Of a stretch of DNA of 64,000 nt, positions 1 through 56,346 are shown one piece after another. Position numbers and translations under genes: made by a program. The DNA is from Bacilli bacterium. GTDB taxonomy: Bacteria; Bacillota_I; Bacilli_A; RF39; UBA660. The notes under the pieces were generated by a model. It did not search any database, was not told the origin of the DNA, and was given only the letters and a program-made list of their open reading frames with translations. The stretch covers positions 20,962 through 84,961 of the forward strand of contig JAZQNW010000006.1 in assembly GCA_045627525.1 (NCBI GenBank), given 5' to 3'. The first letter of the stretch is position 1; each line of letters starts with the position of its first letter.

Positions 1-2274
1 AGCAATAAAATGAAAATTAGTATTGATAAAAAGTATCCAACAATAACTGTTAATGTTACTGATGGTAAAACATATGCTAAGAGTCATAAAGCTAATATAA
101 AAATTAATGATACTGGTGGAAGTTCATTAAAATCTGGTCCAATTAATTTATACTATGGTTTTGGAACAAGTGCACCGGCTTGTAGTAGTTTAACAAAATC
201 TGTTAATGTTAATATTCCTGCATCAGCAAATAGTGCTACTAGTCAAGATATAACTATTAATAGTGGTACAGGAGCTGGAAAATTATATGTATGTACTAAA
301 GATAATACGTTATCTGATGCCGCTGGTAATGCTATAGATGTATCAGAACTATTTGATAGTGATATGTATTTAGATAATACTGGTCCTGTTGTTTCTGCTA
401 GTGTTGGAACTACATGGACTGATAATAAAGTAGTTATAACAGCAAATGCAACTGATAGTAATGTTGGAACAATAGGTGGATATTATATAAGTACATCTAC
501 AACTGCACCATCTGCTAGTGCAACAGGATGGCAAACTGGGAAGACGTTCTCAAAAGGAACAGGTACTTATTATATATGGGCAAAAGATAGTTTAGGAAAT
601 GTTTCAAGTAGTTATGCAACTGCTGTAGTTCCTGCTCAATGTGTTCTTGCAGCAAATACACTTTCAAAAGCATCAGTAACAGTAAATGAAAAATCAACAT
701 CAACTGTAACAATAACTGATGGTACTGTAAATAGTGCTACATCAAGTGATACATCAATTGCGACAGTTAGTGCAAGTGGTAGTAAAATAACAATAACAGG
801 AGCATCTTACGGCTCAGCAACAATAACAGTTGTTATGCCAAAAGGATCTAATTGTTCTGGTACTGTTACAAAGACTATTTCAGTTACTGTAACGCCTGTT
901 TATTACTATAGTGGTAATAATTATTATACAAATTTAAGTACTGCAGTTTCATCAGTAAGTGCAGGATCAACCATTAATGTTTATAGAAATGTTAGTGAAT
1001 CAACTACACCAACATTAAATAAGAATGTAACTCTTAATTTAAATGGTAAAACTATTACATATAGTGGTAGCACTCTTAATGTAGAGGCTGGTACATTTAC
1101 AATAACTGGTAGTGGTACATTAAAAACAACAACAAGTTATTCTAGCAGTTTATTGCAAGCATCAGGTGGAACTCTTAATATAGGTACTACTTCTACAAAA
1201 GGTGAAAGTACACCAAATATTACTGCTTCTGGAACTAGTTCGGCTATTTTAGATTCTAGTGGAACAGTCAATGTCTATAGTGGAACTTTAACATCAAAAA
1301 ATGATGGTATTATTGTTAAGGAAGGAACATTAAATTTTGGTAAAGACGGTACTAGTAGTTCTTATCCAAAGATTGCTGCTACAAGCAATGTAGCAAATAA
1401 AAATAATGTTTATGCCGGTATTTATATAAATGGTGATAAAAATACTGTTAATATTAAGAGTGGATATATTACTGCTATTAGTTATTCATCTGTTTATTTA
1501 GTTAATGGAACTTTAAATGTAGGTACTTCTGCTACCACTTCAAGCAAAGAGTATCCACGATTATCATCAACTGATTCGTCTTTGTATGCGGCCTTATATG
1601 TAAATAAGGGTACATTTAATATGTATGGCGGTCTTGTTGAAAATTTAGGAGAAAAAGATTCTACTTATAATGGTGCGACTGGTTCAGTTGGTTTATACGT
1701 TGGATCTAATTATGCTAGTGATGTAATATTACATGGTGGTTTAATATATTCAAAAAATGCTTGTGCAATTTTTAATGAATTAGTAAATCATTCTTTTAAA
1801 ATAAATGGTGATACGCATGTTGTTACAGCATCAAGTGCTAATTCAGCTATTCATGCTCAAAGAGACTCTAAAGTTTATGTTGGATCAGATTTACCGGCTA
1901 ATGGTGAAACTATTAGAGAACTCGAAAAAGGCGCAATAATGGTTGCACATAGTGGTTATTTAATATGGATTAGCGGAACAGCTAGTACTAGTAATGCTCA
2001 AATAGGTTCGTCAAAGGCATCTAAACCATATAGTGATTATGCACCAAACCTTTATACTGGAATTACAAATGATGCAGCAGCTGTAAGTTTAGGCGGTGGA
2101 AGCTTATATTTCTATAGTGGTGAGGTTCACTGCAATTCATCTACTACTGATACTTTTGCAAATTTAGGTAATAGTGGAAGAACAGTACATAAAGAAAAAG
2201 TAAAAACAACTGGTAAAAGGTCTTATGGTAATTTAACATCAGCAAGTTATAATTATTTATGGTATGTTTCATAA
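1..2274 (+). CDS. Giant modular surface protein, paralogue of 2907..6584; C-terminal 755 aa only, with the 5' end outside the window
   Basis: The reading frame is open from position 1 (S-N-K-M...). It aligns to residues ~400-1237 of the downstream paralogue, with two Ig-like modules, one Big_2-like domain and a G/T/S/N-rich repeat region resembling a parallel beta-helix. The N-terminus is not visible. Confidence 0.6.
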   Translation, partial: SNKMKISIDKKYPTITVNVTDGKTYAKSHKANIKINDTGGSSLKSGPINLYYGFGTSAPACSSLTKSVNVNIPASANSATSQDITINSGTGAGKLYVCTKDNTLSDAAGNAIDVSELFDSDMYLDNTGPVVSASVGTTWTDNKVVITANATDSNVGTIGGYYISTSTTAPSASATGWQTGKTFSKGTGTYYIWAKDSLGNVSSSYATAVVPAQCVLAANTLSKASVTVNEKSTSTVTITDGTVNSATSSDTSIATVSASGSKITITGASYGSATITVVMPKGSNCSGTVTKTISVTVTPVYYYSGNNYYTNLSTAVSSVSAGSTINVYRNVSESTTPTLNKNVTLNLNGKTITYSGSTLNVEAGTFTITGSGTLKTTTSYSSSLLQASGGTLNIGTTSTKGESTPNITASGTSSAILDSSGTVNVYSGTLTSKNDGIIVKEGTLNFGKDGTSSSYPKIAATSNVANKNNVYAGIYINGDKNTVNIKSGYITAISYSSVYLVNGTLNVGTSATTSSKEYPRLSSTDSSLYAALYVNKGTFNMYGGLVENLGEKDSTYNGATGSVGLYVGSNYASDVILHGGLIYSKNACAIFNELVNHSFKINGDTHVVTASSANSAIHAQRDSKVYVGSDLPANGETIRELEKGAIMVAHSGYLIWISGTASTSNAQIGSSKASKPYSDYAPNLYTGITNDAAAVSLGGGSLYFYSGEVHCNSSTTDTFANLGNSGRTVHKEKVKTTGKRSYGNLTSASYNYLWYVS
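7..1135. repeat. Long dispersed DNA repeat, copy 1: 7-640 matches 4062-4695 and 649-1135 matches 4968-5455 at ~95% identity
   Basis: Aligned by eye; tens of nt are identical between mismatches. Similarity decays steadily after ~1135 through 2274 (counterpart 6584). Confidence 0.8.
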
Positions 2275-2296
2275 TATTAAATTTATAGGAGGACAT

Positions 2297-2803
2297 ATGA
2301 AAAAGGATAATAAAAAATTAATATATATTTTACTTTCTATTGTTTTATTTATTGTTATTATATTTAGTGTTTTCTATCTTATATTAAAAAATGATATTTT
2401 CATTAATAATAAATCAAATATAACTGATGAAATACAAAAGAATCCAATAATAAATATTAAAGATACTACAAATGTTAAAGTAAGAGAAGGTAAAAAAATA
2501 AATACATCTAAATTGTTAAATGAAAAGCATGAGTTTAAATTTAATGATTGCAAATTAGTATTTAATAAAATAGATTTAGTTGCTGATTCTAATGAAGGTA
2601 TTACTACTTTTACAGCTGATTTTTCTAGTACTAAAGAAATTATATCTACTGCATTGAATATTGTTTTTCTAGATAAAAAAGGTAATGTTATTCATGGTTA
2701 TGAAATTAATATGGAAAATATTAATGCTAATGAAATAAAACAAGTAGTATGGAAATTTCCTGATGATGTTAGTAATGCATATGATTTTAAAATTGAAAAA
2801 TAG
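2297..2803 (+). CDS. Small single-pass membrane protein, partner of the upstream giant protein; function unknown
   Basis: ATG at 2297 follows a TAGGAGG RBS; the ORF-track start is 2264. Basic N-terminus (MKKDNKK), one TM helix (LIYILLSIVLFIVIIFSVFYLIL), then a ~120-aa extracytoplasmic domain ending ...SNAYDFKIEK. It is paralogous to 6586..7125. Confidence 0.55.
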   Translation: MKKDNKKLIYILLSIVLFIVIIFSVFYLILKNDIFINNKSNITDEIQKNPIINIKDTTNVKVREGKKINTSKLLNEKHEFKFNDCKLVFNKIDLVADSNEGITTFTADFSSTKEIISTALNIVFLDKKGNVIHGYEINMENINANEIKQVVWKFPDDVSNAYDFKIEK

Positions 2804-2809
2804 AATTAA

Positions 2810-2834
2810 GAAATGGTTAGGCCATTTCTTTTTT
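2810..2834 (+). terminator. Rho-independent terminator
   Basis: GAAATGG-ttagg-CCATTTC hairpin followed by a T6 run, directly after the 2803 stop. Confidence 0.7.
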
Positions 2835-2906
2835 ATATATTTTTTAATTTAACTTTTAATTTTTTTTATTATGATGTATAATTTTATTAGAATAGGTGTG
2901 GTGGAT

Positions 2907-5900
2907 ATGAGTAAGAAGAAAAATAATAAAGGTTTTACTTTAGTAGAATTATTAGTTGCAATAACTATTATGGGCATTATTACAGCTTTAGCTTTACCTG
3001 AAGTAAGACGAATTCAAGCAAATAATAAAAATAAAAAATATGAAACATATTCTAAATCTTTAGAAAGTGCAGCTAAGTTGTATGTTGATTCACATAGTAC
3101 TGATTTGTTTGGTGTTTCAGCAAATGCTTGTGATAAGGTATCTTTAAGTTTAGATTTAAAAGGTTCATCTTTAGTAAAAGATTATGGAGTAAATAATATT
3201 TCATGTTCGGGGGAAGAAACTCCAACTGATGCAAGTGACGATTCATATGTTATTATTAATAAAACTGGTGACAAGTATGATTATAAAGTGTATTTGGTTT
3301 GCAAAGATGAAAATCATAATATAGTATATAAATCAAGCGAAGCACCAGTTTGTGGAGTTGTTGATGAATATGGCTTTGAAAAGGCATTATCAACTAACGG
3401 TACTGGTGGTAAATGGATAAGCTTTAATGAGAATAATTCTCAAGCTACTATTAACAAAGCTACTTATGGTAATATTGAATTTACTATAAAAAATAAAACG
3501 GCATTCGAGTCAATAAATCCTAAAATTAATTATTGGTGGAGTGAATGCGATATCAATGGAGAAAATTGTCAACAAAAAGCAATTAAAACTAGAAATTTAA
3601 GCTCATCTAAAGATGGTAATGATAATGTATTATCAGCTAAAATAAATGGTATACCACAAAATGGGGTATATAAATTAGTAATACAACCTGTAAATGTTAT
3701 TACTACAAATGGTAAACAATTACTTGAAAATTTTGAGTCCGGTATTTTTAAGATGGATAGTATTCAGCCAGATAAACCTATTTTTGATCCAGCTACAAGT
3801 TATGGTTGGAAGGGTAAAACATTCACTTCAGCTAAGAATTATGTGTTTAATGCATCAACAAATGAAAGTGAAAAAGGTTCATCTCTTACTTGGTCATATA
3901 AATTTCCATCTAGTGAGTCATCATTCACAAAGTATGCTAGTTCAAATTGTGTATCAGGAACTGATTGCTATAAAATAAAAACACAAGTATTTACTAGTGA
4001 GGTTAATGATAATCTTCAAGTAAAAGTATGTGATCAGGCAAACAATTGTAGTACTAGTGATAAAATGAAAATTAGCATTGATAATACTTTGCCAACAATG
4101 ACTGTTAATGTTACTGATGGTAAAACATATGCTAAGAGTCATAAAGCTAATATAAAAATTAATGATACAGGTGGAAGTTCATTAAAATCTGGTCCAATTA
4201 ATTTATACTATGGTTGGGGAACGAGTGCACCAGCTTGCAGTAGTTTAACAAATTATGTTAATATTAATATTCCATCTTCAGCAAATAGTGCTACTAGTCA
4301 AGATATAACTATAAATAGTGGTACAGGTGCTGGAAAATTATATGTATGTACTAAAGATAATACGTTATCTGATGCCGCAGGTAATGCTATAGATGTATCG
4401 CAATTATTTAATAGTGATATGTATTTAGATAATACTGGTCCTAAAGTTTCAGCTAGTGTTGGAACTACATGGACTGATAATAAAGTAGTTATAACGGCAA
4501 GTGCAACTGATAGTAATGTTGGAACAATAGGTGGATATTATATAAGTACATCTACAACTGCACCATCTGCTAGTGCAACAGGATGGCAAACTGGGAAGAC
4601 ATTCTCAAAAGGAACAGGTACTTATTATATTTGGGCAAAAGATAGTTTAGGTAATGTTTCAAGTAGTTATGCAACTGCTGTAGTTCCTCTACAATGTATT
4701 ACAGCAGATAATAAACTTTCAAAAACATCAGTAACGATAATAGAAAAGGAAAAGGCAACAGTAACAATAACTGATGGTACAGTAAGTAGTGTTACCTCAA
4801 GTAATACTTCTGTTGCAACTGTTAGTGGAAGTGGTAGTACAATAACAATAACTGGTGTATCAGTTGGTACTGCGAATATAACTGTTGAAATGCCAAAAGG
4901 AACAAATTGTAGTGGTACTGTTAAAAAGACTATTTCAGTAACAGTAAATCCAATTCCATGTGTTCCTGCAGCAAATACACTTTCTAGTACATCAGTAACA
5001 ATAAATGAAAAATCAACATCAACTGTAACAATAACTGATGGTACAGTAAATAGTGCTACATCAAGTGATACATCAATTGCGACAGTTAGTGCAAGTGGTA
5101 GTAAAATAACAATAACAGGAGCATCTTACGGCTCAGCAACAATAACAGTTGTTATGCCAAAAGGATCTAATTGTGATGGTACTGTTACAAAGACTATTTC
5201 AGTAACAGTTAAGCCAATGTATTATTATTCTGGTAGTACATATTATGCTAATTTAAAAACTGCAGTTTCATCAGTAAGTGCAGGATCAACCATTAATGTT
5301 TATAGAAATGTTAGTGAATCAACTACACCAACATTAAATAAGAATGTAACTCTTAATTTAAATGGTAAAACTATTACATATAGTGGTAGCACACTTAATG
5401 TAACTGCTGGTACATTTACAATAACTGGTAGTGGTACTTTAAAGACAAATACAAGTTATTCTGGTAGATTATTACAAACAGCAGGTGGAACTCTTAATAT
5501 AGGTACTACTTCGACTGTTGGTCAAAGTTATCCTACTATAACTCAGCAAGGATCAAATAGTACTTTACTTGGAGTTAATTCAGGAACAGTAAATGTATAT
5601 AGTGGTAAATTATCTTCTAATTTTGATGGTATTAATGTAGGTTCTAGTGGTACACTAAATTTTGGTAAAGGTGGAACTAGTTACAACTATCCATTTGTTG
5701 AGGGTGCAAAAGGGGCATCAGGAAGTAGTTCTAACTTTATGGCAATATATACTACGGGTACTACAAATATTATTAGTGGTAAAGTAAGCGCATCTCAATA
5801 TAGTACTGTTTATTTAAGTTCAGGTACTTTAACTATAGGAACACAAACTAATAGTAACCAAATAAATAGAACATGGCCTTTAATAACTGGTACAGCTGGT

Positions 5901-6584
5901 GCTGGAACTTTAAGATTACATGGTGGAACTCTTAAAATGTATAGTGGTCGTGTTGATAATGTAGGAAGTGCAACATCGGTTTATAATGGTACATCAGGAA
6001 GTGTAGCATTAGATATTGAATCTAATTATACTAATGATTTAATAATATATGGTGGTTTATTCTATTCTAAAAATGCATGTTCTATTTATACAGATTCTGC
6101 TAAAGTATTAAAAGTAAATGGTAATACACATGTTGTTACATCATCAAGTGCTAATTCGACAATTCATGCTCAAGGTAATGCTTCTGTTTATGTGGGTTCT
6201 GAACTTAATAGTGGAACATATGATATGGTTCGAACAGGTGGCAATGGTGTATATCTAGCAGCTAAAAATGGTTATGCAATTTGGACGAGTGGTACTGGTA
6301 ATGCTCAGATAGGTTCTTCCAAAGTTACAAGCAGTTGGGCTGATTATTCTCCTACTATATATTCAGGATACACCACTGCAACTTCTGTTAAGTCAGGTTA
6401 TAAAATTTGGATGTATAGTGGTAGAGTATTTTGTAATGGTCAGGAATTTGTATATGGAACATTTGCTAATTCAGCTAAAGCTACAAGAACTAGTTCAAGT
6501 GGAACTTATAGTTATAATGATGCTTATGGCAGTGTTTTAGTACAAGTTCCATATAAGTATCTATGGAAAAGGACGGTAAGTTAA
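2907..6584 (+). CDS. Giant modular type IV pilin-like protein with a prepilin (class III) signal; ~1225 aa
   Basis: N-terminus MSKKKNNKG|FTLVELLVAITIMGIITALALPE has the classic G-F-T-L-x-E prepilin cleavage/methylation motif and a hydrophobic alpha1 helix. A pilin-like head with Cys pairs is followed by Ig-like modules, two tandem Big_2-like domains and a G/T/S/N-rich beta-helix-like C-terminus. The ORF begins at 2871, but ATG 2907 after a GGTGTGGTGG RBS fits better. Confidence 0.7.
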   Translation: MSKKKNNKGFTLVELLVAITIMGIITALALPEVRRIQANNKNKKYETYSKSLESAAKLYVDSHSTDLFGVSANACDKVSLSLDLKGSSLVKDYGVNNISCSGEETPTDASDDSYVIINKTGDKYDYKVYLVCKDENHNIVYKSSEAPVCGVVDEYGFEKALSTNGTGGKWISFNENNSQATINKATYGNIEFTIKNKTAFESINPKINYWWSECDINGENCQQKAIKTRNLSSSKDGNDNVLSAKINGIPQNGVYKLVIQPVNVITTNGKQLLENFESGIFKMDSIQPDKPIFDPATSYGWKGKTFTSAKNYVFNASTNESEKGSSLTWSYKFPSSESSFTKYASSNCVSGTDCYKIKTQVFTSEVNDNLQVKVCDQANNCSTSDKMKISIDNTLPTMTVNVTDGKTYAKSHKANIKINDTGGSSLKSGPINLYYGWGTSAPACSSLTNYVNINIPSSANSATSQDITINSGTGAGKLYVCTKDNTLSDAAGNAIDVSQLFNSDMYLDNTGPKVSASVGTTWTDNKVVITASATDSNVGTIGGYYISTSTTAPSASATGWQTGKTFSKGTGTYYIWAKDSLGNVSSSYATAVVPLQCITADNKLSKTSVTIIEKEKATVTITDGTVSSVTSSNTSVATVSGSGSTITITGVSVGTANITVEMPKGTNCSGTVKKTISVTVNPIPCVPAANTLSSTSVTINEKSTSTVTITDGTVNSATSSDTSIATVSASGSKITITGASYGSATITVVMPKGSNCDGTVTKTISVTVKPMYYYSGSTYYANLKTAVSSVSAGSTINVYRNVSESTTPTLNKNVTLNLNGKTITYSGSTLNVTAGTFTITGSGTLKTNTSYSGRLLQTAGGTLNIGTTSTVGQSYPTITQQGSNSTLLGVNSGTVNVYSGKLSSNFDGINVGSSGTLNFGKGGTSYNYPFVEGAKGASGSSSNFMAIYTTGTTNIISGKVSASQYSTVYLSSGTLTIGTQTNSNQINRTWPLITGTAGAGTLRLHGGTLKMYSGRVDNVGSATSVYNGTSGSVALDIESNYTNDLIIYGGLFYSKNACSIYTDSAKVLKVNGNTHVVTSSSANSTIHAQGNASVYVGSELNSGTYDMVRTGGNGVYLAAKNGYAIWTSGTGNAQIGSSKVTSSWADYSPTIYSGYTTATSVKSGYKIWMYSGRVFCNGQEFVYGTFANSAKATRTSSSGTYSYNDAYGSVLVQVPYKYLWKRTVS
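4062..5455. repeat. Long dispersed DNA repeat, copy 2; carries an extra ~260-nt domain-encoding insert at 4690-4950 relative to copy 1
   Basis: See copy 1. Confidence 0.8.
4690..5215 (+). repeat. In-gene tandem duplication encoding two Big_2-like Ig domains (2 x ~87 aa)
   Basis: Protein repeats LSKTSVTIIEKEKATVTITDGTVSSVTSSNTSVATVSGSGSTITITGVSVGTANITVEMPKGTNCSGTVKKTISVTV and LSSTSVTINEKSTSTVTITDGTVNSATSSDTSIATVSASGSKITITGASYGSATITVVMPKGSNCDGTVTKTISVTV. Paralogue A has one copy. Confidence 0.75.
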
Positions 6585-6585
6585 T

Positions 6586-7125
6586 ATGAATAGTGAAAAT
6601 GAAAAAGCACAAGGTAATATTGAAAATAAAAAAAGTAATAAAACTTTACTTATTATTGTAATTCTTTTGTTAGCTATAGCATGTGTTATTGCGGGATTAA
6701 TCTTTTTAAATAATGATACTAAAAAGAATGAAATTGTTCCAACACCAGATGAGGAACTTCGTCCAGCAGTAGATATAGATAATAAGCAAAATGTAAAAAT
6801 AGAGAATAATGTTAAAACTAATGTTTCTAAAAAATTAAATGAAAAACATACTTTTGATTTTATTGATAATAATAAAATTACAATTGATAATATTAGTTTA
6901 AAGGCTGACGCTAATACTGGAGATACTACTTTTAAATTTAGTTTAACTAGTAGTGTTAATATAGAAGCAAAAGCAGTTGGATTATCATTTGTTGATAAAG
7001 ATGGTAATAGTATAAATGGTTATGAAATAACTATTGAAAATATTGCTGCTAATGATGCAAAAGAAATTACTTTAACTTTTAGAGATGATTTTTCAAATGC
7101 ATATGACTTTATTATGGAAGTATAA
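6586..7125 (+). CDS. Small single-pass membrane protein, partner of the upstream giant protein; function unknown
   Basis: Its ATG lies 1 nt after the 6584 stop, so it is probably translationally coupled. One TM helix (LLIIVILLLAIACVIAGLIFL). The C-terminal domain aligns with 2297..2803 (...NEKH.F.F.D...GYEI..ENI.AN...SNAYDF). Confidence 0.55.
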   Translation: MNSENEKAQGNIENKKSNKTLLIIVILLLAIACVIAGLIFLNNDTKKNEIVPTPDEELRPAVDIDNKQNVKIENNVKTNVSKKLNEKHTFDFIDNNKITIDNISLKADANTGDTTFKFSLTSSVNIEAKAVGLSFVDKDGNSINGYEITIENIAANDAKEITLTFRDDFSNAYDFIMEV

Positions 7126-7132
7126 TATTTAA

Positions 7133-7157
7133 GAAATGGGTAACCATTTCTTTTTTT
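7133..7157 (+). terminator. Rho-independent terminator
   Basis: GAAATGG-gtaa-CCATTTC hairpin followed by a T7 run, almost identical to the 2810..2834 terminator. Confidence 0.7.
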
Positions 7158-7185
7158 ATGTTATAATTAATTTGTTGGTGGTTTT

Positions 7186-8949
7186 ATGAAAAATTTTAAA
7201 GAAAAATTAGCTTTAGTTCCTACTAAACCTGGTAGTTATCAAATGAAAAATAAAGATGGAGTAATTATATATGTTGGAAAAGCTAAAAATTTAAAAAAAA
7301 GATTGCGTAGTTATTTTACTGGTAATGTTACTGGCAAGACTAAAATGCTAGTTGAAGATATTGATGACTTTGAATATATAGTTACATCTTCAGAATTAGA
7401 ATCATTAATACTAGAAATTACTTTAATTAAGAAATATGATCCTAAGTATAATATTATGCTTACAGATGATAAAACTTATCCTTATATTGAATTAACTAAG
7501 GAAAAATATCCAAGATTAAGAGTAGTTAGAAATGTTAAAAAGAAGAAAAATTTAAACTACTTATATGGTCCATATCCTAATGTTACAGCGGCAAGAAAGA
7601 CAGTAAATATGTTAAATAGACTTTATCCTTTGAGGAAATGTGAACATTTAAATAAAGAAGGATGTTTGTATTATCATATAAATGAGTGTTTAGGTTACTG
7701 TATGAAGGATATTAATAAAGAAACAATTAATGTTATGAAAAAGGAAATAATTTCGTTTTTAAAAGGTGATGCTACATTAATTAAAGATAAAATTAATAGT
7801 GAGATGTTAAGATCAAGTGAGGCTATGAATTATGAAAGAGCCTTGGAATTAAAAAATACTTTGGAAGATATAGATATTACATTAAGAAAGCAAAAAATTG
7901 ATTTAAATGATAATTATAATTTTGATTTAATAAATTATTATGTTGATAAGAATTATTTATCTATACAAATATTTTTTGTACGAGATGGTTTATTAGTAGG
8001 AAGAGACAAATCAATACTAAGCTGTGATATTGATGTAGTAGAGCAAGTTATTGAATACATTTTAAAATTTTATGATAAAACAGCAATTTTACCTAAAGAA
8101 TTATTGGCTCCAGATGGTATAGACTGTGATTTACTTAGTGAATATTTAAAAATTAAAGTTAATAATCCTAAGAAAGGTAAACTTAAGAATTTGTTAGATT
8201 TAGCTAAAGAAAATGCTAAAGAAGTATTAGAAGAGGAAGAGGAAACTTTAAAGAAAAATGATGATTTGAGAATTAAGGCAATTAATGAATTAAAGATAAT
8301 ACTTAATCAAGAGAATGTTTCTAGAATGGAAGCATTTGATAATAGTCATTTATTTGGAACTTTTTATGTAGGTGGAATGGTTGTTTATGATGACTTTTTA
8401 CCTTTAAAAGATGAATATCGTAAATTTAAGATAAGCGTTGATGTAAAAGATGATATATCAGCAATGAAAGAAGTATTATATAGAAGATATTATCGTGTTT
8501 TGATGGAAAATTTAACAAAACCTGATGTTATTGTAATGGACGGCGGAATTGCTCAAGTTAGGGTTGCTAAAGAGATTATTGATTCGCTTGGATTAAATAT
8601 AAGAGTAATAGGACTAGTAAAAAATAATAAACATAAAACTAGTAATATTATTGATGAAAATGGAAATGTTTTAAATGTTAGTTCAGATAGTAATTTATTT
8701 TTATTTTTTAGTAGAATTCAGGAAGAAGTTCATAGGTATGCTATTAGTTATCATAGAAGTATTAAGTCTAAGGGTGCTTTAGCATCTGTACTAGATGTTG
8801 TTCCTGGTATAGGTGAAGTAAGAAGAAAAGAATTATTGAAGAAATTTGGTTCTTTAAAGAGAATTAAAGAGGCTTCTTTAGATGAGCTTAGTGAAGTTGT
8901 TTCATTAGAAGTAGCTAAAAATTTACTTACTTATTTAAAAGATGTATAG
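7186..8949 (+). CDS. uvrC: Excinuclease ABC subunit C
   Basis: N-terminal GIY-YIG motif (GSYQM...IIYVGKAKNLKKRLRSYF); length 587 aa; C-terminal HhH region. Confidence 0.92.
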   Translation: MKNFKEKLALVPTKPGSYQMKNKDGVIIYVGKAKNLKKRLRSYFTGNVTGKTKMLVEDIDDFEYIVTSSELESLILEITLIKKYDPKYNIMLTDDKTYPYIELTKEKYPRLRVVRNVKKKKNLNYLYGPYPNVTAARKTVNMLNRLYPLRKCEHLNKEGCLYYHINECLGYCMKDINKETINVMKKEIISFLKGDATLIKDKINSEMLRSSEAMNYERALELKNTLEDIDITLRKQKIDLNDNYNFDLINYYVDKNYLSIQIFFVRDGLLVGRDKSILSCDIDVVEQVIEYILKFYDKTAILPKELLAPDGIDCDLLSEYLKIKVNNPKKGKLKNLLDLAKENAKEVLEEEEETLKKNDDLRIKAINELKIILNQENVSRMEAFDNSHLFGTFYVGGMVVYDDFLPLKDEYRKFKISVDVKDDISAMKEVLYRRYYRVLMENLTKPDVIVMDGGIAQVRVAKEIIDSLGLNIRVIGLVKNNKHKTSNIIDENGNVLNVSSDSNLFLFFSRIQEEVHRYAISYHRSIKSKGALASVLDVVPGIGEVRRKELLKKFGSLKRIKEASLDELSEVVSLEVAKNLLTYLKDV

Positions 8950-8964
8950 TAAATAAAAAAAATG

Positions 8965-8992
8965 CAAATAGTATTAACTATTTGTTTTTTTT
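8965..8992 (+). terminator. Rho-independent terminator
   Basis: CAAATAGT-atta-ACTATTTG perfect hairpin followed by a T8 run. Confidence 0.7.
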
Positions 8993-9019
8993 ATAGTATA
9001 ATTATACATAGAATAGGGA

Positions 9020-11410
9020 GTGGTTAATTTGAAGAAAAATAATCGCGGATTTACAATTGTTGAAGTATTAGCAGTTATTGTAATACTTGGTATTTTAATG
9101 GTTGTTGCTGTTCCCGCAGTTTATAAATATTTAAGTAAATCAAGAAACTTTTCTTATGATAATATGTATAAAAGTGTATTTAGTGCTGCACAAAATTATC
9201 ATCTAGAAAATAATGATGTATTTGTTGCTGACGAAGACCATGCATTTTATGATGAGGATTTTGTAAAAAACACATTAGTAGAAGAGCAATATTTGGAGCC
9301 ATTATTAGATCCTGCATCTGAAGGTAATCAATGTTCTGCTGAGGTTTTTATTCTTCTACCTTCATCTGAATCTCAAGAGCAAGATTCAGAAACATTGGAA
9401 GATTTTTATTATAAAGTTCATTTAAAATGTTCTGCTCATGAAGGAACAAAAACATTTAATAGTGTTGGAGATATAGTTGATGAAGATGCAATAAATGAAG
9501 GTATTAAAGATGCTATTAAGAATACTACATTTAAGATGAAATATGATAATAAAAATGGAGCTTCATATACTCCTGGTACTTGGACTAATAAGAATATATG
9601 GATTGGTGAATTTCAGGCTGGTGAAAAATATAAAAATGTTAAATATCAATATGTTTCTACTGTAAATGGTAACTGTACTGAAGGAACTCCTAAAGATATA
9701 GACATGGTTAATGTTCAATCTGCTACATTTCAAGAAAAACAAAAAATATGTGTTCGTCAAGTTACAAGTAAAGGAGTTGAAGGGGATTGGAGTAGTCCTA
9801 TTGATTTAAATATTGATAAGACAGCTCCAACAATCAAAGTTACTTTAGCAGACGCAAGTCAGAATTATAAACAACTGGCAGATACTGTGGAATTTAATGG
9901 TACTAACAATTTAAAGGAATTTGGTGATGATAAGTTATTTGTTGCTGGTGACTTGAGATTAAAAATAGAAGTAACTGATGATGAATCTGGTTTGCCTGAA
10001 AAATTTCATATTAATTATAATAATTATGGTGATACTAGTTATAATGAAATTTATACAGAAAATTCAAGTACTGGTGATAAAACTTATAGTAGTGGCACTG
10101 ATAATAATAAAAAATATGATTCAGGTAAAATTTTAGATGGTTATAGGGTAGTAGAAATTATTGCTACTGATAATGCTGGTAATGAAAGAAAGATTAAATT
10201 AAAATTTGTAGCTGGTTCTAAACCTCCTACAATTAATGCTACAGTAACTAATGGTATAACTACTTGTACAGCAACTAGTGAATCAAAAGATAAAGTTGTT
10301 GAGTGCCCAGGCTGGTTTAATACAAAAGTTCCAAAAGTTACTATAAATGCTACTGGTGTTGTTAATATAGAAAATAATTTTCACATTGATTATAATACTC
10401 CAAGACAATCAAGTTATGTTGAAAATTATTCTTCAAATAGTAGTACAGGAGATAAGAAATTTACGTCTGGTAGTAGCACATCTAAAACATATAATACAGG
10501 TGAAATTTCTGATGGTTATAGAATTGTAAAAATTACGGTAACGAATGAAAATAATAATTCATCTGTATTGACGTTAAAACTAAAAGTTGATACAAAACCT
10601 CCTACAGTTTCAGTTAACTATTCTAATAATAATAATGGTGAAAAAATAATTAATTGTAGTACATCTTCTCCTAATTCTTGTAATTATAGTACATTGATAG
10701 ATTATAAAATGAAGGGTACATATACTTATAGTGATAAGGATGGTAGCTGGGATGGTAGTGGACTAAAAGCTACTTATACTGCTCAATATAATGCTTCCGG
10801 TAATAGTGATTATGTTGATACACTAACATCATCCGGTACTATGGAATATAAAGAAACACGTGTTACTACTTTATCACCAGGGTATCGCAGAATATATTAT
10901 ACTTTTACTGATGTTGCTGGAAATGAAAGCCATATTGATGCTAAATTAAATATTGGTAAAGATATATGTATAGCAGAATCTTCTGGTACAAATTATGGGC
11001 AATATTATGCTCAATGTCAAAGTTATATAATACCAAGAGATAAGTGGAATAGTTGTCAATTTTATGGTAATAAATCATTTACTGCATCTTGGAATAATTG
11101 TCCTAATGATGATGAGGAATTCCATATTCTTCCTACTAAAATAGGTACTAAACTTGTTAGTTATTATCATACTAAATATTATAAATTGTATTGTGTTAAT
11201 TCAGATGGTTTAATTGTTGAACATACTATGCCATATGTTTGTTTAGATGGTATTTCATCTTGTCCAGGACAAACTCATATGTGCCCTAATTTACAAAATA
11301 GTGATTATTTAGTTATTGATGATTCAAGTCTTGATTTTCCTAATGATGGTGATACTGCTGTTTCTAATGCAATAAAAGATATATTTAATTGGGTTACTAG
11401 TTTATTCTAA
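9020..11410 (+). CDS. Large modular type IV pilin-like protein with a prepilin signal; ~795 aa, module set different from 2907..6584
   Basis: N-terminus (M)VNLKKNNRG|FTIVEVLAVIVILGILMVVAVPAV is a prepilin-type N-terminal cleavage/methylation domain. It carries repeated Ig-like modules (...DGYRVVEIIATDNAGNE... / ...DGYRIVKITVTNEN...) and a Cys-rich C-terminal module. The start is either GTG 9020 or TTG 9029 after a GGGAGTGG RBS. Confidence 0.65.
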   Translation: MVNLKKNNRGFTIVEVLAVIVILGILMVVAVPAVYKYLSKSRNFSYDNMYKSVFSAAQNYHLENNDVFVADEDHAFYDEDFVKNTLVEEQYLEPLLDPASEGNQCSAEVFILLPSSESQEQDSETLEDFYYKVHLKCSAHEGTKTFNSVGDIVDEDAINEGIKDAIKNTTFKMKYDNKNGASYTPGTWTNKNIWIGEFQAGEKYKNVKYQYVSTVNGNCTEGTPKDIDMVNVQSATFQEKQKICVRQVTSKGVEGDWSSPIDLNIDKTAPTIKVTLADASQNYKQLADTVEFNGTNNLKEFGDDKLFVAGDLRLKIEVTDDESGLPEKFHINYNNYGDTSYNEIYTENSSTGDKTYSSGTDNNKKYDSGKILDGYRVVEIIATDNAGNERKIKLKFVAGSKPPTINATVTNGITTCTATSESKDKVVECPGWFNTKVPKVTINATGVVNIENNFHIDYNTPRQSSYVENYSSNSSTGDKKFTSGSSTSKTYNTGEISDGYRIVKITVTNENNNSSVLTLKLKVDTKPPTVSVNYSNNNNGEKIINCSTSSPNSCNYSTLIDYKMKGTYTYSDKDGSWDGSGLKATYTAQYNASGNSDYVDTLTSSGTMEYKETRVTTLSPGYRRIYYTFTDVAGNESHIDAKLNIGKDICIAESSGTNYGQYYAQCQSYIIPRDKWNSCQFYGNKSFTASWNNCPNDDEEFHILPTKIGTKLVSYYHTKYYKLYCVNSDGLIVEHTMPYVCLDGISSCPGQTHMCPNLQNSDYLVIDDSSLDFPNDGDTAVSNAIKDIFNWVTSLF

Positions 11411-11427
11411 AAGGAGTGATTTTATAC

Positions 11428-11898
11428 ATGTCTAAAAAAGTAAAAAAATTTGGAATTATAATCTTAGTTTTGGGGCTTATTGTTACTACTACAGGTATTG
11501 TGTTAAATTTTACTCTTACTAATAGGAATAAAAAAGGAATTGTTCCAACAGAAAAGAAAGCTAATGATATACCTACAACGGATCATCCTGGAAGTGTAGA
11601 TGATATTACTACAAAGGATTTATCAGATGAACATTGTTCTGGAGATATATGTGTTTTAAATATTAAATTACAATATTATGATGGAAAAGGTATGGCATAT
11701 ATTAAGGTTAAGAATAATGGTACTTTAATACCTAGCGGTGTATTGATTGTTAAAGATGTTAATGATGATAATAATAGCTTATATTTCTATCATGATGAGT
11801 TGGCTAATTCTATGGAATTTGAAACTAATGTTGAATTTAGTGATGAAAAACAATTAAATATGGTTGATTATACAATTGAATTAAAAACAGAAGAATAG
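11428..11898 (+). CDS. Small single-pass membrane protein, partner of the upstream pilin-like protein; function unknown
   Basis: ATG 11428 follows an AAGGAG RBS; the ORF-track GTG start is 11416. One TM helix (FGIIILVLGLIVTTTGIVL) then a ~110-aa extracytoplasmic domain. Same architecture and position as 2297..2803 and 6586..7125. Confidence 0.5.
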   Translation: MSKKVKKFGIIILVLGLIVTTTGIVLNFTLTNRNKKGIVPTEKKANDIPTTDHPGSVDDITTKDLSDEHCSGDICVLNIKLQYYDGKGMAYIKVKNNGTLIPSGVLIVKDVNDDNNSLYFYHDELANSMEFETNVEFSDEKQLNMVDYTIELKTEE

Positions 11899-11970
11899 TA
11901 ATATTTTAAAGTGAATAGGTTTTACCTATTCATTTTTTTGTTGTATAATTGTTATAGTTTGGTGATTATT

Positions 11971-13710
11971 ATGAGTAAAATAAAAATTATGGATGAAGTT
12001 TTGGCTAATAAGATAGCAGCTGGAGAAGTAGTTGAAAAGACTATGAATGTTGTTAAGGAGTTAGTAGAAAATTCAATTGATGCTAAAAGTAATGAAATTA
12101 CTATAAAACTGATTGATTCAGGTGTTAAGGAAATTGAAGTCTCTGATAATGGTATTGGAATGGACGAAGAGGATGCTAAAATGGCTTTTTCTAGGCATGC
12201 TACATCTAAACTTAAAAATCTTGATGATTTGTTTTATATTGAATCATTAGGATTTAGAGGAGAAGCTTTACCATCTATAGCATCTGTTTCTAAAGTTAGG
12301 CTTAAAACCTCTGATGGAAAAGTTGGAACATTAGTTACTTTATGTGGTGGAGAAAATATAAACATTGAAAGATGCGATTTGCAACAGGGTACTACTATTA
12401 CAGTGACTGATTTGTTTTATAATACTCCAGTAAGATTAAAATATTTAAAAAATTTATATGTTGAACTAGCTAATATTGTTGATTATGTTAATAAAATGGC
12501 TTTGTCTTATCCAAATATCAAATTTACTTTGATAAATAATGATAAGGTTTTACTTAGTACTGATGGAAATGGTGATTTATTAAAAGTTATTTATGGAATA
12601 TATGGTGCAGATATTACTAAGAAGATGATTGAAATAAATGGTGAAAATGATGATTATTATATAAGCGGTTTTGTATCTTATCCGGAAATAACAAAAAGTA
12701 ATCGAAATGGTATTACTACTTTGGTAAATGGTAGAGTTATTAAGAATAATGATTTAAATAAATCAATTATTGAGTGTTATCATACTTATATTCCAAAAGA
12801 TAAATATCCAATAGTTGTTTTAAATATTGATGTTGATCCAATATTAATTGATATTAATATACATCCTACTAAAATGGATATTAAATTTTCTAAAATGGAT
12901 TCATTAAAAGAATTAGTTATTAATTTAATTACTAAAAAATTAAAGGAATTAACTTTAATTCCTAATGCTTCTGTTAGAAATTATTCATCTGTTACTGAAG
13001 TTAAAAATCAGATTAGGGAGATAGAAGAAGATAAAAAAGAAGATATAACTTATGAAGAAATAAAATTAGATTTTTCTGTTAGTGAAGAGAAAGAAAGCTA
13101 TAATGAAGAAAAAAAGATTGAAGAATATCGTATTAAGGAAATGATTCCTAAGGGTATAGTTTATTCTACTTATATAATTGCTGAAAATGAAGAAGGTATG
13201 TATGTGATAGATCAACATGCTGCGGCAGAGAGAATTAACTATGAAAAAGTATTAAATTCATTAAAAGAAAATGTCATTGTAGTTGATTTATTAATACCTG
13301 TTAAAATAGAATTGTCTAGTGCGGAATATTTAATTATTAAAGAAAATTTTGGTATTTTACAAGAATATGGTTTTATACCTGAGGAGTTTGGAATAAATAC
13401 AGTTATTATTAGAAGTCATCCAAATTGGATTAAAGAAGATATAGCAGAAGAGTGCATTCGCAAGGTTATTGATATAATTATTAGTCAAGAAAAATTTGAT
13501 TTTGATCAGTTTGTTTGGCATATGGCTGCTACAATGGCGTGTAAGATGTCTATTAAAGCTAATGATTATATTTCTTACGATGATCAGGTATGGCTACTTA
13601 ATGAACTTCGTAAATGTGATAATCCTTTTACTTGCCCTCATGGTAGACCTACTATTATTACTTATACAAAATATGATTTAGAAAAGCTATTTAAGCGTAG
13701 CATTGACTAA
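11971..13710 (+). CDS. mutL: DNA mismatch repair protein MutL
   Basis: GHKL ATPase motifs (IAAGEVVE, VKELVENSIDA, DNGIGM) and a C-terminal dimerisation/endonuclease region. The likely start is ATG 11971 after a GGTGA RBS; the ORF opens at 11911. Confidence 0.9.
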   Translation: MSKIKIMDEVLANKIAAGEVVEKTMNVVKELVENSIDAKSNEITIKLIDSGVKEIEVSDNGIGMDEEDAKMAFSRHATSKLKNLDDLFYIESLGFRGEALPSIASVSKVRLKTSDGKVGTLVTLCGGENINIERCDLQQGTTITVTDLFYNTPVRLKYLKNLYVELANIVDYVNKMALSYPNIKFTLINNDKVLLSTDGNGDLLKVIYGIYGADITKKMIEINGENDDYYISGFVSYPEITKSNRNGITTLVNGRVIKNNDLNKSIIECYHTYIPKDKYPIVVLNIDVDPILIDINIHPTKMDIKFSKMDSLKELVINLITKKLKELTLIPNASVRNYSSVTEVKNQIREIEEDKKEDITYEEIKLDFSVSEEKESYNEEKKIEEYRIKEMIPKGIVYSTYIIAENEEGMYVIDQHAAAERINYEKVLNSLKENVIVVDLLIPVKIELSSAEYLIIKENFGILQEYGFIPEEFGINTVIIRSHPNWIKEDIAEECIRKVIDIIISQEKFDFDQFVWHMAATMACKMSIKANDYISYDDQVWLLNELRKCDNPFTCPHGRPTIITYTKYDLEKLFKRSID

Positions 13711-13755
13711 ATCTTTTTTTTATGTTAGAATTTAGACAATTTTGGGGATGATAAA

Positions 13756-14628
13756 ATGCAAGATATTATCGTAATTGTTGGTCCAACATCTGTTGGTAAG
13801 ACTAAACTTAGTATAGAGTTAGCAAAAAAAATAGATGCCGAAATTATTAACGGAGATAGTGTTTCTATTTATAAAAAGTTAGATATAGGTAGTGCTAAAC
13901 CTACTATTGAGGAAAGAGATGGAATAGTTCATCATTTAATTGATATTCGGAATGTTTTAGATGATTATTCTGTTTTTGATTATCAGAGAGATTGTCGAGA
14001 TAAGATTAATGAAATTACTAATAGGGGAAAGAGAGTAATAATTGTAGGTGGCACTGGTTTATATATAAAAAGTGCTTTATATGATTATAAATTTGTAGAA
14101 GGTACTACTTATAATGAATATTTAGAATTAAGTAATGAAGAAATATATAATAAAATAAAAGAATATGGTGATATTGATATTCATATTAACAATAGACGTA
14201 GATTGGTTAGAGTTTTAAATAAATTGGAAAATGGTGAGGAATTATCTAATGATAAAGATAAATTATTATATCCAATTAAAGTAATAGGTTTAACAACAGA
14301 CAGAGAAAAACTATATGATAGAATAAATAAACGTGTTGATTTAATGATTAATAATGGTTTATTAGATGAAGTTAATAGTTTAAAAGAATATTATGAAAAA
14401 TCTCGTATTTTAAATAGCGGTATTGGTTATAAAGAATTTAATGATTATTTTTCTAATAATAAGTCACTTGATGAAGTAATTGATATGATAAAACTAGATT
14501 CTAGAAGATTTGCTAAAAGACAATATACTTTTTTTAATAATCAATTTGATGTTAAATGGTATGATGTTGATTTTGATGATTTTGATAAAACAATTAATAG
14601 TATATATGATGATTTGATTAAATATTAG
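13756..14628 (+). CDS. miaA: tRNA dimethylallyltransferase
   Basis: P-loop GPTSVGKT and the typical MiaA layout (IINGDSVSIYKKLDIGSAKPT). A mutL-miaA linkage is common in Firmicutes. Confidence 0.9.
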   Translation: MQDIIVIVGPTSVGKTKLSIELAKKIDAEIINGDSVSIYKKLDIGSAKPTIEERDGIVHHLIDIRNVLDDYSVFDYQRDCRDKINEITNRGKRVIIVGGTGLYIKSALYDYKFVEGTTYNEYLELSNEEIYNKIKEYGDIDIHINNRRRLVRVLNKLENGEELSNDKDKLLYPIKVIGLTTDREKLYDRINKRVDLMINNGLLDEVNSLKEYYEKSRILNSGIGYKEFNDYFSNNKSLDEVIDMIKLDSRRFAKRQYTFFNNQFDVKWYDVDFDDFDKTINSIYDDLIKY

Positions 14629-14636
14629 GGGGAAAT

Positions 14637-15584
14637 ATGTTTAATAGTGTTCGATTGAATAAGGAATTTCATGATCAAATTATTGGTAGTATTCCTGATA
14701 ATTTTGATTCGTTGGAAAAAGCATATTATGTTTATTGTTATCTTTGTTATCATTTAACATATGATCCAGAAGTTTATTATAAAGATGTAAATAATTGTTC
14801 TACTGTTCATAACAAAATTGAAAGAATAGAGGAGATAAACAAAGATAATAATAAAATAGTTTGTTATGAATTTAGTGCTATATATGGAAAAATTTTAGAA
14901 GAGTTAGGTATTAGATATGAAATATGTGGTGGTGATGAATATGGTAATAGTCACTTATCATTAAATATTTTTACTAATGATTTTGTTATTGATGCTGATC
15001 CATTAAATAGTCAAATTTATTCTGACTTAGCTAAGATGAAAAACGGTTTAGAATTATCTGGTTTTATTTTTAAATTACCTTCAGATATTAATGAATTAAT
15101 TGCTAAAAGGAAAAAATTTAATGATAGTATAAAAAAAGTAAATGATTATTTTTCTATTCAATTTAATTATTATCATGGTACTATTTCTGAATTAGGTGAT
15201 TATACTAAACTAGATTTTGATGAGAGACTATCTACTTTTTTAAAATTGATTATGAATAGTAATTTATGTGATGTTTCTAAGATTAGTTATGTATTAGAAG
15301 CACAGTCTAAAATATTTTACGATGAGTATAATTCATCAGTTTGTGTAGCAGGAGATGAACTTGATAAGTCATTAGTATTTATTGTTGCTTATAATGATCG
15401 AGGTGTTTATGGTAGATTTGATAATGATTATTATTTAGTAAAAAATGATCATTTTGATTTATACAGTAAGGAAGAAATTATTAGAGAATTTGATAGTGGT
15501 AGATTAGTTGTTAGTAATAGTAGAAATATATTTGCTTTACCAGGAGTTGATTTAGTAGGATTTCAATATAAAAAGAAGGATTAA
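14637..15584 (+). CDS. Transglutaminase-like superfamily protein, probably cytoplasmic
   Basis: Candidate Cys/His/Asp core (VCYEFSAIY ... NSHLSLNIF ... VIDAD); no signal peptide. Confidence 0.45.
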   Translation: MFNSVRLNKEFHDQIIGSIPDNFDSLEKAYYVYCYLCYHLTYDPEVYYKDVNNCSTVHNKIERIEEINKDNNKIVCYEFSAIYGKILEELGIRYEICGGDEYGNSHLSLNIFTNDFVIDADPLNSQIYSDLAKMKNGLELSGFIFKLPSDINELIAKRKKFNDSIKKVNDYFSIQFNYYHGTISELGDYTKLDFDERLSTFLKLIMNSNLCDVSKISYVLEAQSKIFYDEYNSSVCVAGDELDKSLVFIVAYNDRGVYGRFDNDYYLVKNDHFDLYSKEEIIREFDSGRLVVSNSRNIFALPGVDLVGFQYKKKD

Positions 15585-16498
15585 TATCCTTCTTTTAATT
15601 CACTATAAATTTCTTGATTAAAATTATGTTCATCTGATTCTATATTTAGTAATTTGTTTGTTGAAATTAAATAAAATGAATAGTCAAGTACATCTGTATT
15701 ATCATTAGTTACTGGATCATCCCAAGTTAAATCTAGATGGTACCAATTATTGTTTAAATAAACTGAATTCCAGATGTGTTTATTACCTGATATTTTATAG
15801 CTCATTACCCCTAAACGTTCAAACATTAATTCCATGGCATCTGTATAGCCTCCACAAATTCCATAACCTTGAATTAGTGGTCCATAAGCTATATCTGATT
15901 TATACATAATTACATTTTTTTCATTACGCATAGTATCATATTTTGAATTGTTTATAATATAATCATGCACTTTTTTAATATTATTATTTAAATTATCATT
16001 TTTGTCTATTATATTATTTTCTATATAATCTAATTTTTCTTCAATTTTTTCTATATCATCATTAGTATAGCTTTTATAAATATTAATGGTAATTTTTCCA
16101 GTAGAGTCATATGATGTTTCAATATGTGAAAAGCCATTATATGGATGAACAAAGTTATTTATATTTGATAAAGTGTCTTGATCATTAGCTAACTGTTTTA
16201 TATCATCTATGCAACTTATATAATCTTTTGGACAATAGAAGGTAAATTCTTCTTTTCCAGCATTAATAGCTGTGTAATATATATTTAAGATATCTTGATA
16301 ACATGAAGGAGAAAAATTATCGGTATTTTGAACAAAGTTAAAATCATAGTTTCTATAGTATTGATTTTTTTCACCTAAAGTTATTATTTTATCTTCACTA
16401 GGAATTATATTTTTTATATATTCAATAAGTGTATCATTTGATAAAACATAACCAATGGTTATTAATAATATACCTAGTGTTGTAATTAGCTTTTTCAT
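15581..16498 (-). CDS. Secreted transglutaminase-like cysteine-protease-fold protein
   Basis: Signal peptide MKKLITTLGILLITIGYVLS, then the core motifs CGGYTDAMELMFERLG ... HIWNSVYL ... HLDLTWDD. It is convergent with 14637..15584, with a 4-nt overlap of stops. Confidence 0.55.
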   Translation of the reverse strand: MKKLITTLGILLITIGYVLSNDTLIEYIKNIIPSEDKIITLGEKNQYYRNYDFNFVQNTDNFSPSCYQDILNIYYTAINAGKEEFTFYCPKDYISCIDDIKQLANDQDTLSNINNFVHPYNGFSHIETSYDSTGKITINIYKSYTNDDIEKIEEKLDYIENNIIDKNDNLNNNIKKVHDYIINNSKYDTMRNEKNVIMYKSDIAYGPLIQGYGICGGYTDAMELMFERLGVMSYKISGNKHIWNSVYLNNNWYHLDLTWDDPVTNDNTDVLDYSFYLISTNKLLNIESDEHNFNQEIYSELKEGY

Positions 16499-19173: not shown

Positions 19174-19249
19174 TAATGGATTTTATTGTTCCTTTTTTTT
19201 ATTATTTATTGTATAATTATTATAAGGTAGAGTAGTAGGGGTGCTAGTT

Positions 19250-20923: not shown

Positions 20924-20934
20924 GGGGTGAAGAT

Positions 20935-34644: not shown

Positions 34645-34700
34645 TTGTGTTTTTATTGATTTTTAACTGATTTTATGATAAAATATAGCCGGTGATTTTT

Positions 34701-35591: not shown

Positions 35592-35653
35592 CTTTTTTCT
35601 TGAAAAAAATATATAAATGTGTTATTATATACGGCAACGAAATGAGGGGTAAT

Positions 35654-40378: not shown

Positions 40379-40406
40379 TATAATTTATTATTATAGGAAT
40401 GGTGTT

Positions 40407-56333: not shown

Positions 56334-56346
56334 CTTGGAGGTATTT

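Follow-up and report, generated by a model that had tools for sequence, protein, structure and literature searches.

Giant modular type IV prepilin genes paired with genes for small FxLYD-type membrane proteins in an uncultured gut Firmicute

Organization of the cassettes

The stretch of DNA analyzed here (64,000 nucleotides [nt], positions 20,962 to 84,961 of contig JAZQNW010000006.1 in the Bacilli bacterium assembly GCA_045627525.1; hereafter the window, to which positions refer unless a related locus is named) begins with three cassettes, in each of which a gene encoding a giant modular type IV prepilin (big1, big2 and big3, respectively) is closely followed by a gene encoding a small single-pass membrane protein (small1, small2 and small3). 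A preliminary description of this DNA had reported the three pairs of open reading frames (ORFs), together with hairpin terminators closing the first two cassettes; the pairs and their short gaps were confirmed, both terminators are real, and a further terminator-like hairpin lies behind the third pair (Table 1). Six terminator-like sites were observed, compared with 2.4 expected. Since such a hairpin ends each large-plus-small pair, the cassettes are separate transcription units set among uvrC, mutL and their neighbours, each unit being composed of a promoter, a large gene, a close small gene and a terminator.

The first large gene is only partly contained in the window. Its full-length product, P0002 (1119 amino acid residues [aa]), is encoded on the same NCBI contig (149 kb) and has the N-terminus MKKIKKNKLG/FTLVELLVAITIMGILMVLALP, the slash here and below marking the predicted processing site. 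For big3, the likelier start is TTG 9029, which is preceded by a GGGAG ribosome-binding site. The hairpin that closes cassette 3 contains the mechanically called GTG start of mutL (11911), and mutL probably begins in reality at the ATG near 11971 (MSKIKIMDEV...).

A string of the type AATAG(T/G)(A/G).. recurs just 5' of the ribosome-binding sites of the pilin genes, in the window (2880..2906 and 9003..9028) as well as in the related loci L001, L002, L003, L004, L041, L043 and L124, examples being agaataggtgtgg, agaatagggagtgg, aatagtagaggag and aataataggtgat. It may be an AT-rich sequence beside the Shine-Dalgarno or a common leader element. Searches of the cassette leaders against Rfam gave no match to a riboswitch or other RNA element, either at the gathering threshold or at E ≤ 1, and a cyclic di-GMP riboswitch, as in C. 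difficile pilA1, was looked for but not found.

Table 1. Coordinates of the cassette features in the window
Feature	Position	Strand	Description
big1	1..2274	+	ORF; last 757 codons of the gene for a giant modular prepilin of 1119 aa, start upstream of the window
small1	2297..2803	+	168-aa single-pass FxLYD-type membrane protein; 22 nt past the big1 stop
Terminator, cassette 1	2808..2830	+	Intrinsic: AAGAAATGG-loop-CCATTTCTT, then T-run
big2	2907..6584	+	1225-aa giant modular prepilin
big2 leader	2907..2933		MSKKKNNKG
big2 pilin module	2934..3356		~aa 10-150
big2 stalk	4059..5456		aa ~385-850
big2 tandem Ig-like domain pair	4637..5200		~88-aa domains, within the stalk
small2	6586..7125	+	179-aa single-pass FxLYD-type membrane protein; 1 nt past the big2 stop
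Terminator, cassette 2	7131..7152	+	Intrinsic; near-identical to the cassette 1 terminator
Promoter-like element, ahead of big3	8974..9002		TTAACT-17-TATAAT
big3	9020..11410	+	796-aa giant modular prepilin; 793 aa if the start is TTG 9029
small3	11416..11898	+	160-aa single-pass membrane protein; 156 aa if the start is ATG 11428; 5 nt past big3
Terminator-like hairpin, cassette 3	11908..11936	+	Overlaps the mechanically called mutL GTG start

Prepilin signal and pilin module of the large proteins

The class III prepilin signal (IPR012902) suspected at the head of the large proteins was borne out by two profile models, both of which scored above their cut-offs. The Pfam model N_methyl (PF07963, cut-off 21.2 bits) matched big2 and big3 with 36.4 bits (E 3e-9) and 31.4 bits (E 1e-7), and TIGR02532 (cut-off 16.3 bits) matched them with 29 and 25.6 bits, respectively; P0002 opens with a signal of the same class. 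The signals read MSKKKNNKG/FTLVE in big2, KKNNRG/FTIVE in big3 and KKNKLG/FTLVE in P0002, the mature N-terminus of big3 following as KKNNRG/FTIVEVLAVIVILGILMVVAVP. In a six-frame motif scan of the 64 kb, canonical prepilin N-termini were found only in big2 and big3. The hydrophobic N-terminal half of the first helix (alpha1N, about 21 residues), as read from the sequence, is FTLVELLVAITIMG14IITALALP22 in big2 and FTIVEVLAVIVILG14ILMVVAVP22 in big3, and both mature N-termini therefore carry Phe1, Glu5, Gly14 and Pro22, by which the alpha1N of type IVa pilins and pseudopilins is recognized.

The heads of big2 and big3 share 31% identity over their first ~137 aa (E 9e-13). With residues 1-160 of big2 as a query, 48 proteins were retrieved, most of which are stand-alone pilins of 116-221 aa that align over 80-91% of the query, conserved cysteines included; with stand-alone pilins of 133-150 aa, the alignment extends over about 90% of the head. 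Sequence matches of the large proteins in the PDB were limited to pilin alpha1 helices (Geopilin, PilA, PilE1), and when metagenomes were scanned with the alignment of the head, the hits were mainly generic pilins similar in alpha1 only, which gave no information on machinery or partners. By these sequence comparisons, the class III prepilin signals of the large proteins are genuine, and the proteins also contain a complete pilin module homologous to stand-alone pilins. The AlphaFold2 model of the head, computed on the 48-protein search alignment, consists of a 57-residue helix followed by beta-strands, with a predicted local distance difference test score (pLDDT) of 73.5. Foldseek returned no significant match of this model in the PDB, and the predicted fold is consistent with, rather than proof of, a pilin fold.

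Architecture beyond the pilin head

The pilin head is followed by 650 to 1,080 residues, and at 796-1225 aa the large proteins are, as first described, modular and far above ordinary pilin size. In big2, a variable immunoglobulin (Ig)-like region (aa 150-385) is followed by the stalk, in which the tandem Ig-like pair represents a real duplication, and by a divergent C-terminal region (~aa 850-1225), the last 400 aa being 44-61% Gly/Ser/Thr/Asn. The head of big3 is followed by repeated Ig-like modules and then by a Cys-rich C-terminal domain. The distal domain is variable, the one of big3 being Cys-rich and those of big1 and big2 G/S/T/N-rich.

No Pfam domain beyond the head reached its threshold in the large proteins of the window, and the labels 'Big_2' and 'pectate-lyase/beta-helix' initially given to their modules are for this reason unconfirmed. 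Neither Big_2 (PF02368) nor a beta-helix family was matched at E ≤ 0.1, the C-terminal G/S/T/N-rich region had no Pfam match, and the only signals in Pfam were sub-threshold Ig-like matches, over residues 601-679, to PF13629 (E 5.5e-4) and PF23486 (E 1e-3). Relatives with the same head family bear Flg_new or TSP1 (thrombospondin-type) domains. The window proteins combine a pilin module with non-pilin modules and are in this respect modular pilins in the sense of Raynaud et al. (2021).

Overall, big1 and big2 are 49% identical, and the identity (1..2274 compared with 4056..6584 within the window) is distributed as a mosaic along their length: 30-76% for the N-terminal 380 aa of big2, 86-98% (89-98% at the DNA level) for the stalk at residues ~385-850, and 37-59% for the C-terminal 370 aa. 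The identity between small1 and small2 is 42%. The mosaic suggests that the stalk underwent recent gene conversion or that the ends are diversifying, and the sequence comparison also suggests that the distal domain and the small partner co-diverged in cassettes 1 and 2, which are paralogous.

The small partners and the FxLYD family

Each of the small ORFs (160-179 aa) encodes a protein with a single N-terminal transmembrane helix. In small1, a basic N-terminus, one transmembrane helix and a linker precede a beta-rich ectodomain ending DVSNAYDFKIEK, and the AlphaFold2 model of small2 comprises a transmembrane helix (residues 4-42), a disordered linker (residues 45-81) and a beta domain of 7-8 strands (pLDDT 60). 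The products of small1 and small2 are clear homologues, whereas small3 is distant from both (21-26% identity), its pairwise similarity to small2 being restricted to the transmembrane region; shared architecture, alignment and profile place it in the family as a divergent member.

A k-mer (word-based) homologue search with small2 recovered one relative only, whereas an exhaustive profile search with a hidden Markov model (HMM) yielded 343 cluster representatives at E ≤ 1e-3, nearly all of 150-190 aa and aligned end-to-end. Our own family HMM matched small1 with E 1e-38, small1 itself being among the source sequences of the model. The family is characterized by a basic N-terminus with a transmembrane helix, a linker ending 'ID.NN.ENV.I.D..K.N.S..L', and a beta-rich domain ending 'D[FLI]SNAYDF.I'. 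None of the Pfam families fits the small partners. The NCBIfam FxLYD domain model NF038353 matches 28 of 52 family members (best E 7e-9), and the C-terminal NAYDF motif corresponds to the eponymous FxLYD motif; what had been taken for a protein of unknown family thus appears to belong to a sizeable FxLYD-domain family. Individually, small2 scores 14.4 bits (E 0.027) against the NF038353 cut-off of 23, and small1 and small3 gave no hit at E ≤ 0.1. Weak hits to NF033512 were obtained for 5 of the 52 members (best E 5e-4). PDB searches with the small partner gave no significant sequence or fold match, the NF038353 model carries no function, and a full-text literature search for 'FxLYD' returned no relevant paper. 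A phage origin of the small partner was not supported, no relatives having been found in a scan of viral contigs. The window also encodes a 152-aa DUF4352 protein (29282..29740, E 3e-17) with a layout of transmembrane helix plus beta-sandwich like that of the small partners; as a relative of their family it was ruled out by hhalign (probability 0.8%).

Recurrence of the gene pair

The succession of large gene, small gene and terminator is, as previously proposed, a repeated unit, and it recurs elsewhere, namely in the related loci L006, L007 and L043. In L006 and L007, both short contigs, a big2-like C-terminus is followed 0-1 nt later by one of the closest homologues of the small partner. Locus L043 (31% G+C) contains four tandem giant N_methyl proteins of 771, 793, 818 and 1042 aa (4124..16199), which share the head and the first module with big2 (33% over ~290 aa). 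Three of them are trailed 12-15 nt later by a single-pass protein of 150-158 aa, the fourth lying at the contig edge, and the family HMM recognizes two of these three (E 9e-18 and 2e-13). Each L043 cassette has its own promoter-like TTGTCA...TGATAAAAT and a preceding hairpin. A non-FxLYD small protein at L041 (6705..7289), similar to one in L043, trails a 3,244-aa protein. The adjacency of the cassettes to uvrC and mutL does not extend to relatives.

FxLYD genes beside giant proteins without Glu5

A scan of one genome per species, performed with a 17-sequence subset of the 52-sequence family alignment, located family members at 33 loci, all in low-GC gut Clostridia genomes. No canonical prepilin was present within 10 kb of the FxLYD genes at these 33 loci. 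Many of them have an adjoining large protein on the same strand (218-1880 aa) with fn3, Big_3, Flg_new or GLUG domains and with an N-terminus of the form 'K(G/A)ITLVALVITIIILLILAG' or 'KGSITxFxL', which resembles pilin alpha1N but is devoid of Glu5, Gly14 and Pro22. These N-termini are recognized neither by N_methyl nor by the NCBIfam pilin models, and a literature search for the Glu5-less motif returned nothing relevant. Large pilin-like proteins make up 12 of 57 immediate FxLYD neighbours versus 2 of 287 other genes (Fisher p = 1e-8), both exceptions being second neighbours. Gene order varies across the loci, the large gene preceding the small one or vice versa.

The first type of N-terminus extends into a longer conserved motif, 'K(G/A)ITLVALVITIIILLILAG..G.NG(L/I)..(K/R)A..AK', with Ala in place of Glu5, in proteins that directly adjoin FxLYD genes (L011, L019, L023, L024, L025, L029, L031, L032, L034, L036 and L040). 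The second type, 'KGSIT(S/L)F(T/V)L...', is found on proteins of 1,100-1,800 aa and is reminiscent of PilX-like minor pilins; the genes are immediate or second neighbours of an FxLYD gene (L018 3336..8693, L021 3726..7071 and L026 5192..9796). In the broader reading given at the end of the Discussion, the absence of Glu5 could be a sign of tip subunits or of processing by another route.

Pilus machinery and orphan pilin genes

Pfam scans of 46 window ORFs, inspection of the 14 hitless ORFs and a search for Walker A motifs uphold the initial observation that no pilus machinery is encoded in the 64 kb; a PilB/GspE-type Walker A motif was found neither in the window nor in 43 related loci. Stand-alone pilins of the same head family (133-145 aa) are likewise encoded by single orphan genes (L003 10001..10438 and L004 10001..10402), flanked by yqeH and mraZ and by genes for a LysM protein and rubrerythrin, with no pilus genes within 10 kb. 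As these stand-alone pilins are also orphans, dispersed pilin genes seem to be normal in this lineage. ComEA and ComEC are encoded 8 kb from two giant-pilin relatives, which indicates that the lineage has DNA-uptake genes. In Firmicutes, such genes act together with the ComG type IV filament and its prepilin peptidase, and their proximity is therefore an indirect pointer to a type IV filament system in the lineage.

Other genes of the window

The window has a G+C content of ~26% and contains the housekeeping and sporulation genes uvrC, mutL, miaA, Gpr, SpoIIP, RNase III, RNase J, gltX, mutS and nusB, the same set also including xseA, SpoIVB, SpoIIGA, a sigma-E-like factor, alaS, holA and mnmA. 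This gene set and base composition assign the DNA to a low-GC endospore-forming Firmicute. Relatives of the window proteins are encoded in metagenome-assembled genomes from the gut that bear the labels 'Mollicutes bacterium', 'uncultured Clostridia bacterium' and 'Clostridium sp. CAG:921'.

Several further groups of genes are recorded here. Downstream of spoIIP, two adjacent ORFs (560 and 590 aa; 19241..22707) without Pfam match encode acidic, Asn/Asp/Glu-rich, soluble products. At 33100..36976, a run of three ORFs consists of a 299-aa ORF without Pfam hit and, on either side of it, a gene for a TPR-repeat protein (514 and 458 aa). Two ORFs of 253 and 442 aa (39617..41735), also without Pfam match, directly follow mutS in the usual place of mutL, and mutL itself lies 25 kb from the mutS site, adjoining cassette 3. 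Finally, a tandem pair of DUF3137 proteins at 55332..57294 is followed by a LemA-like membrane protein of 180 aa.

Discussion

The signal motif, the homology of the pilin module, the pairing and recurrence of the genes and the family identity of the small proteins are known here from sequence. The reading that we favour, with a probability of roughly 0.55, is that the large protein of each cassette represents a modular type IV pilin that would be processed and incorporated into a filament, and that the small product would serve as its membrane-tethered accessory. We infer cleavage, polymerization, tip location, adhesion and contact between the large and small proteins as follows. The large protein would insert into the membrane, be cut after Gly-1 by a prepilin peptidase encoded elsewhere, and join a type IV filament via its alpha1 helix, at low abundance and most plausibly at the tip; stand-alone pilins of 130-150 aa belonging to the same head family would form the filament body. 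The adhesive distal module would thereby be displayed far from the cell wall. The small protein would be a membrane-tethered accessory specific to its cassette, with its FxLYD beta-sandwich outside the cell, and may hold, fold or dock its cognate large protein at the membrane before assembly.

Several findings weigh against this interpretation. PilB/C/D/M/N/O/T and ComG genes are absent from the window and from the first 43 related loci (609 kb), and the incorporation into a filament of a subunit of more than 1,100 aa is itself something that we infer. The small protein of one L043 cassette (9420..9878) is unrelated to the FxLYD family; the giant pilins of L001, L041/L042 and L124 have no small partner and stand alone between housekeeping genes. 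Conversely, about half of the FxLYD genes in the 33 genomes have housekeeping neighbours and no large one, so the partnership is facultative.

The main rival explanation, which we regard as rather unlikely, holds that the large proteins are membrane-anchored surface adhesins that never polymerize, the pilin-like N-terminus, whether cleaved or uncleaved, serving only as an anchor, the Ig-like stalk taking the distal domain across the wall and the FxLYD protein being a co-anchored partner or stabilizer. The position of the genes as orphans among housekeeping genes, with no machinery nearby, agrees with it, a stalk of 1,000 aa would need no filament to reach the surface, and the giants with which FxLYD genes pair elsewhere, whose N-termini lack Glu5, Gly14, Pro22 and an N_methyl match, would fit a plain signal-anchor role. 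The window proteins, however, retain all processing and assembly residues (Gly-1, Phe1, Glu5, Gly14 and Pro22) as well as a complete, presumably globular pilin domain with homologues among stand-alone pilins, which a simple anchor would not need. Less likely than this is that the adjacency of large and small genes is functionally meaningless, ordinary FxLYD membrane proteins having been co-duplicated with their neighbours. The housekeeping neighbours of about half of the FxLYD genes and the several giant pilins without partner could be so explained, but the three window pairs with gaps of 1-22 nt and shared terminators, the recurrence of the pair in L006, L007 and L043, and the enrichment among immediate neighbours (12/57 vs 2/287, Fisher p = 1e-8) make it improbable.

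It is also very improbable that the large proteins are minor pilins of a Com pseudopilus or a type II secretion-like pseudopilus, functioning in DNA capture or secretion and not in adhesion. The best partial NCBIfam hits are indeed to ComGE, ComGC and GspG, ComEA and ComEC lie near relatives, one relative carries the name 'type II secretion system protein' in its source, and the cassettes adjoin DNA-repair genes. The ComG/Gsp scores of 26-37 bits nevertheless fall short of the equivalog cut-offs of 49-89 (ComGE 37.1 bits, cut-off 49; ComGC 34.7 bits, cut-off 75; GspG 32.5 bits, cut-off 88.85) and reflect the alpha1 helix only, all being within residues ~1-60. The Flg_new, TSP1 and fn3-like domains of the relatives are moreover typical of adhesins, and the proximity to uvrC and mutL is a feature that the relatives do not share.

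Modular pilins are an established class, comprising more than 1,200 proteins with 264 architectures in a survey that proposed them as tip-displayed adhesins and in which the largest one mentioned has 860 aa (PMC8179133). The closest described counterparts are Streptococcus sanguinis PilB, with a vWA module, and PilC, with a lectin module (PMC8179133, PMC9934059), which like the window proteins combine a class III signal, a small pilin module and grafted modules, and whose presumed adhesive, tip-exposed role in a monoderm Firmicute is the one proposed here. The window proteins differ from these in size (796-1225 aa with a multi-domain stalk, compared with ~50 kDa for S. sanguinis PilB), in being encoded by orphan cassettes with a closely following small membrane protein instead of a pil locus, and in having extra domains without Pfam match at threshold. 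The type IVb proteins CofB and TcpB and the Thermus protein ComZ (PMC8179133) also join a pilin module to beta-rich, ligand-binding tip domains (beta-repeat, beta-sandwich or beta-solenoid), but show no similarity beyond alpha1, are encoded inside pilus operons and have no FxLYD-type partner. Orphan pilins as such are known, 57 of 212 predicted Gram-positive pilins lying outside biosynthesis operons (Imam et al., 2011, PMC3244431); they are orphans like the stand-alone relatives found here and are candidates of ordinary size, and that survey described neither giants nor partner genes.

Taken by itself, the large gene is accordingly not of a new kind and would not surprise a pilus specialist. 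The window proteins extend the modular-pilin class in size, in their orphan cassettes and in the closely following FxLYD-type partner. For the latter, a possible analogy is offered by the Acinetobacter CpaB-type chaperone, a membrane-tethered, substrate-adjacent factor of type II secretion. Both would be small bitopic proteins with an extracytoplasmic beta-rich domain, encoded beside a large exported protein of a type IV filament-related pathway, and the weak hits of a few family members to NF033512 point the same way; the analogy is limited in that the substrates here are pilins, not soluble enzymes, and that the PDB holds no significant sequence or fold match. The preliminary description had seen in the cassettes a dedicated and undescribed adhesion or secretion-substrate family. 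The repeated unit and its recurrence support this in part, but the large gene is of the known modular-pilin kind, and the partner is an FxLYD-type protein and non-obligatory. As far as our searches extend, what appears undescribed is that such large genes recurrently pair with FxLYD genes and that giants without Glu5 do so as well.

We tentatively propose, as a broader and doubtful possibility, that a widespread and undescribed class of giant surface proteins of low-GC gut Clostridia has its dedicated partner in the FxLYD-type bitopic proteins, the giants being launched from pilin-like N-termini that are either canonical GFTLVE (here and in L043) or Glu5-less 'KGITLVALVITIIILLILAG' / 'KGSITxFxL'. 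The two-gene cassette would then be a portable display module, with a stalk homogenized by gene conversion and a distal domain and partner that diversify together.

Monoderm gut bacteria use type IV filaments as one of their chief means of attachment to hosts, food particles and other microbes, and the cassettes offer concrete candidates for the loading of very large cargo on such filaments, the candidate pilins being several times bigger than characterized modular pilins and the conserved small membrane protein being possibly the missing loading or holding factor. The source is an uncultured gut lineage with an essentially undescribed surface biology. The mosaic of the paralogues points to varying adhesive tips on a common stalk, and the link between the two genes, if true, would give the FxLYD domain family its first functional context.

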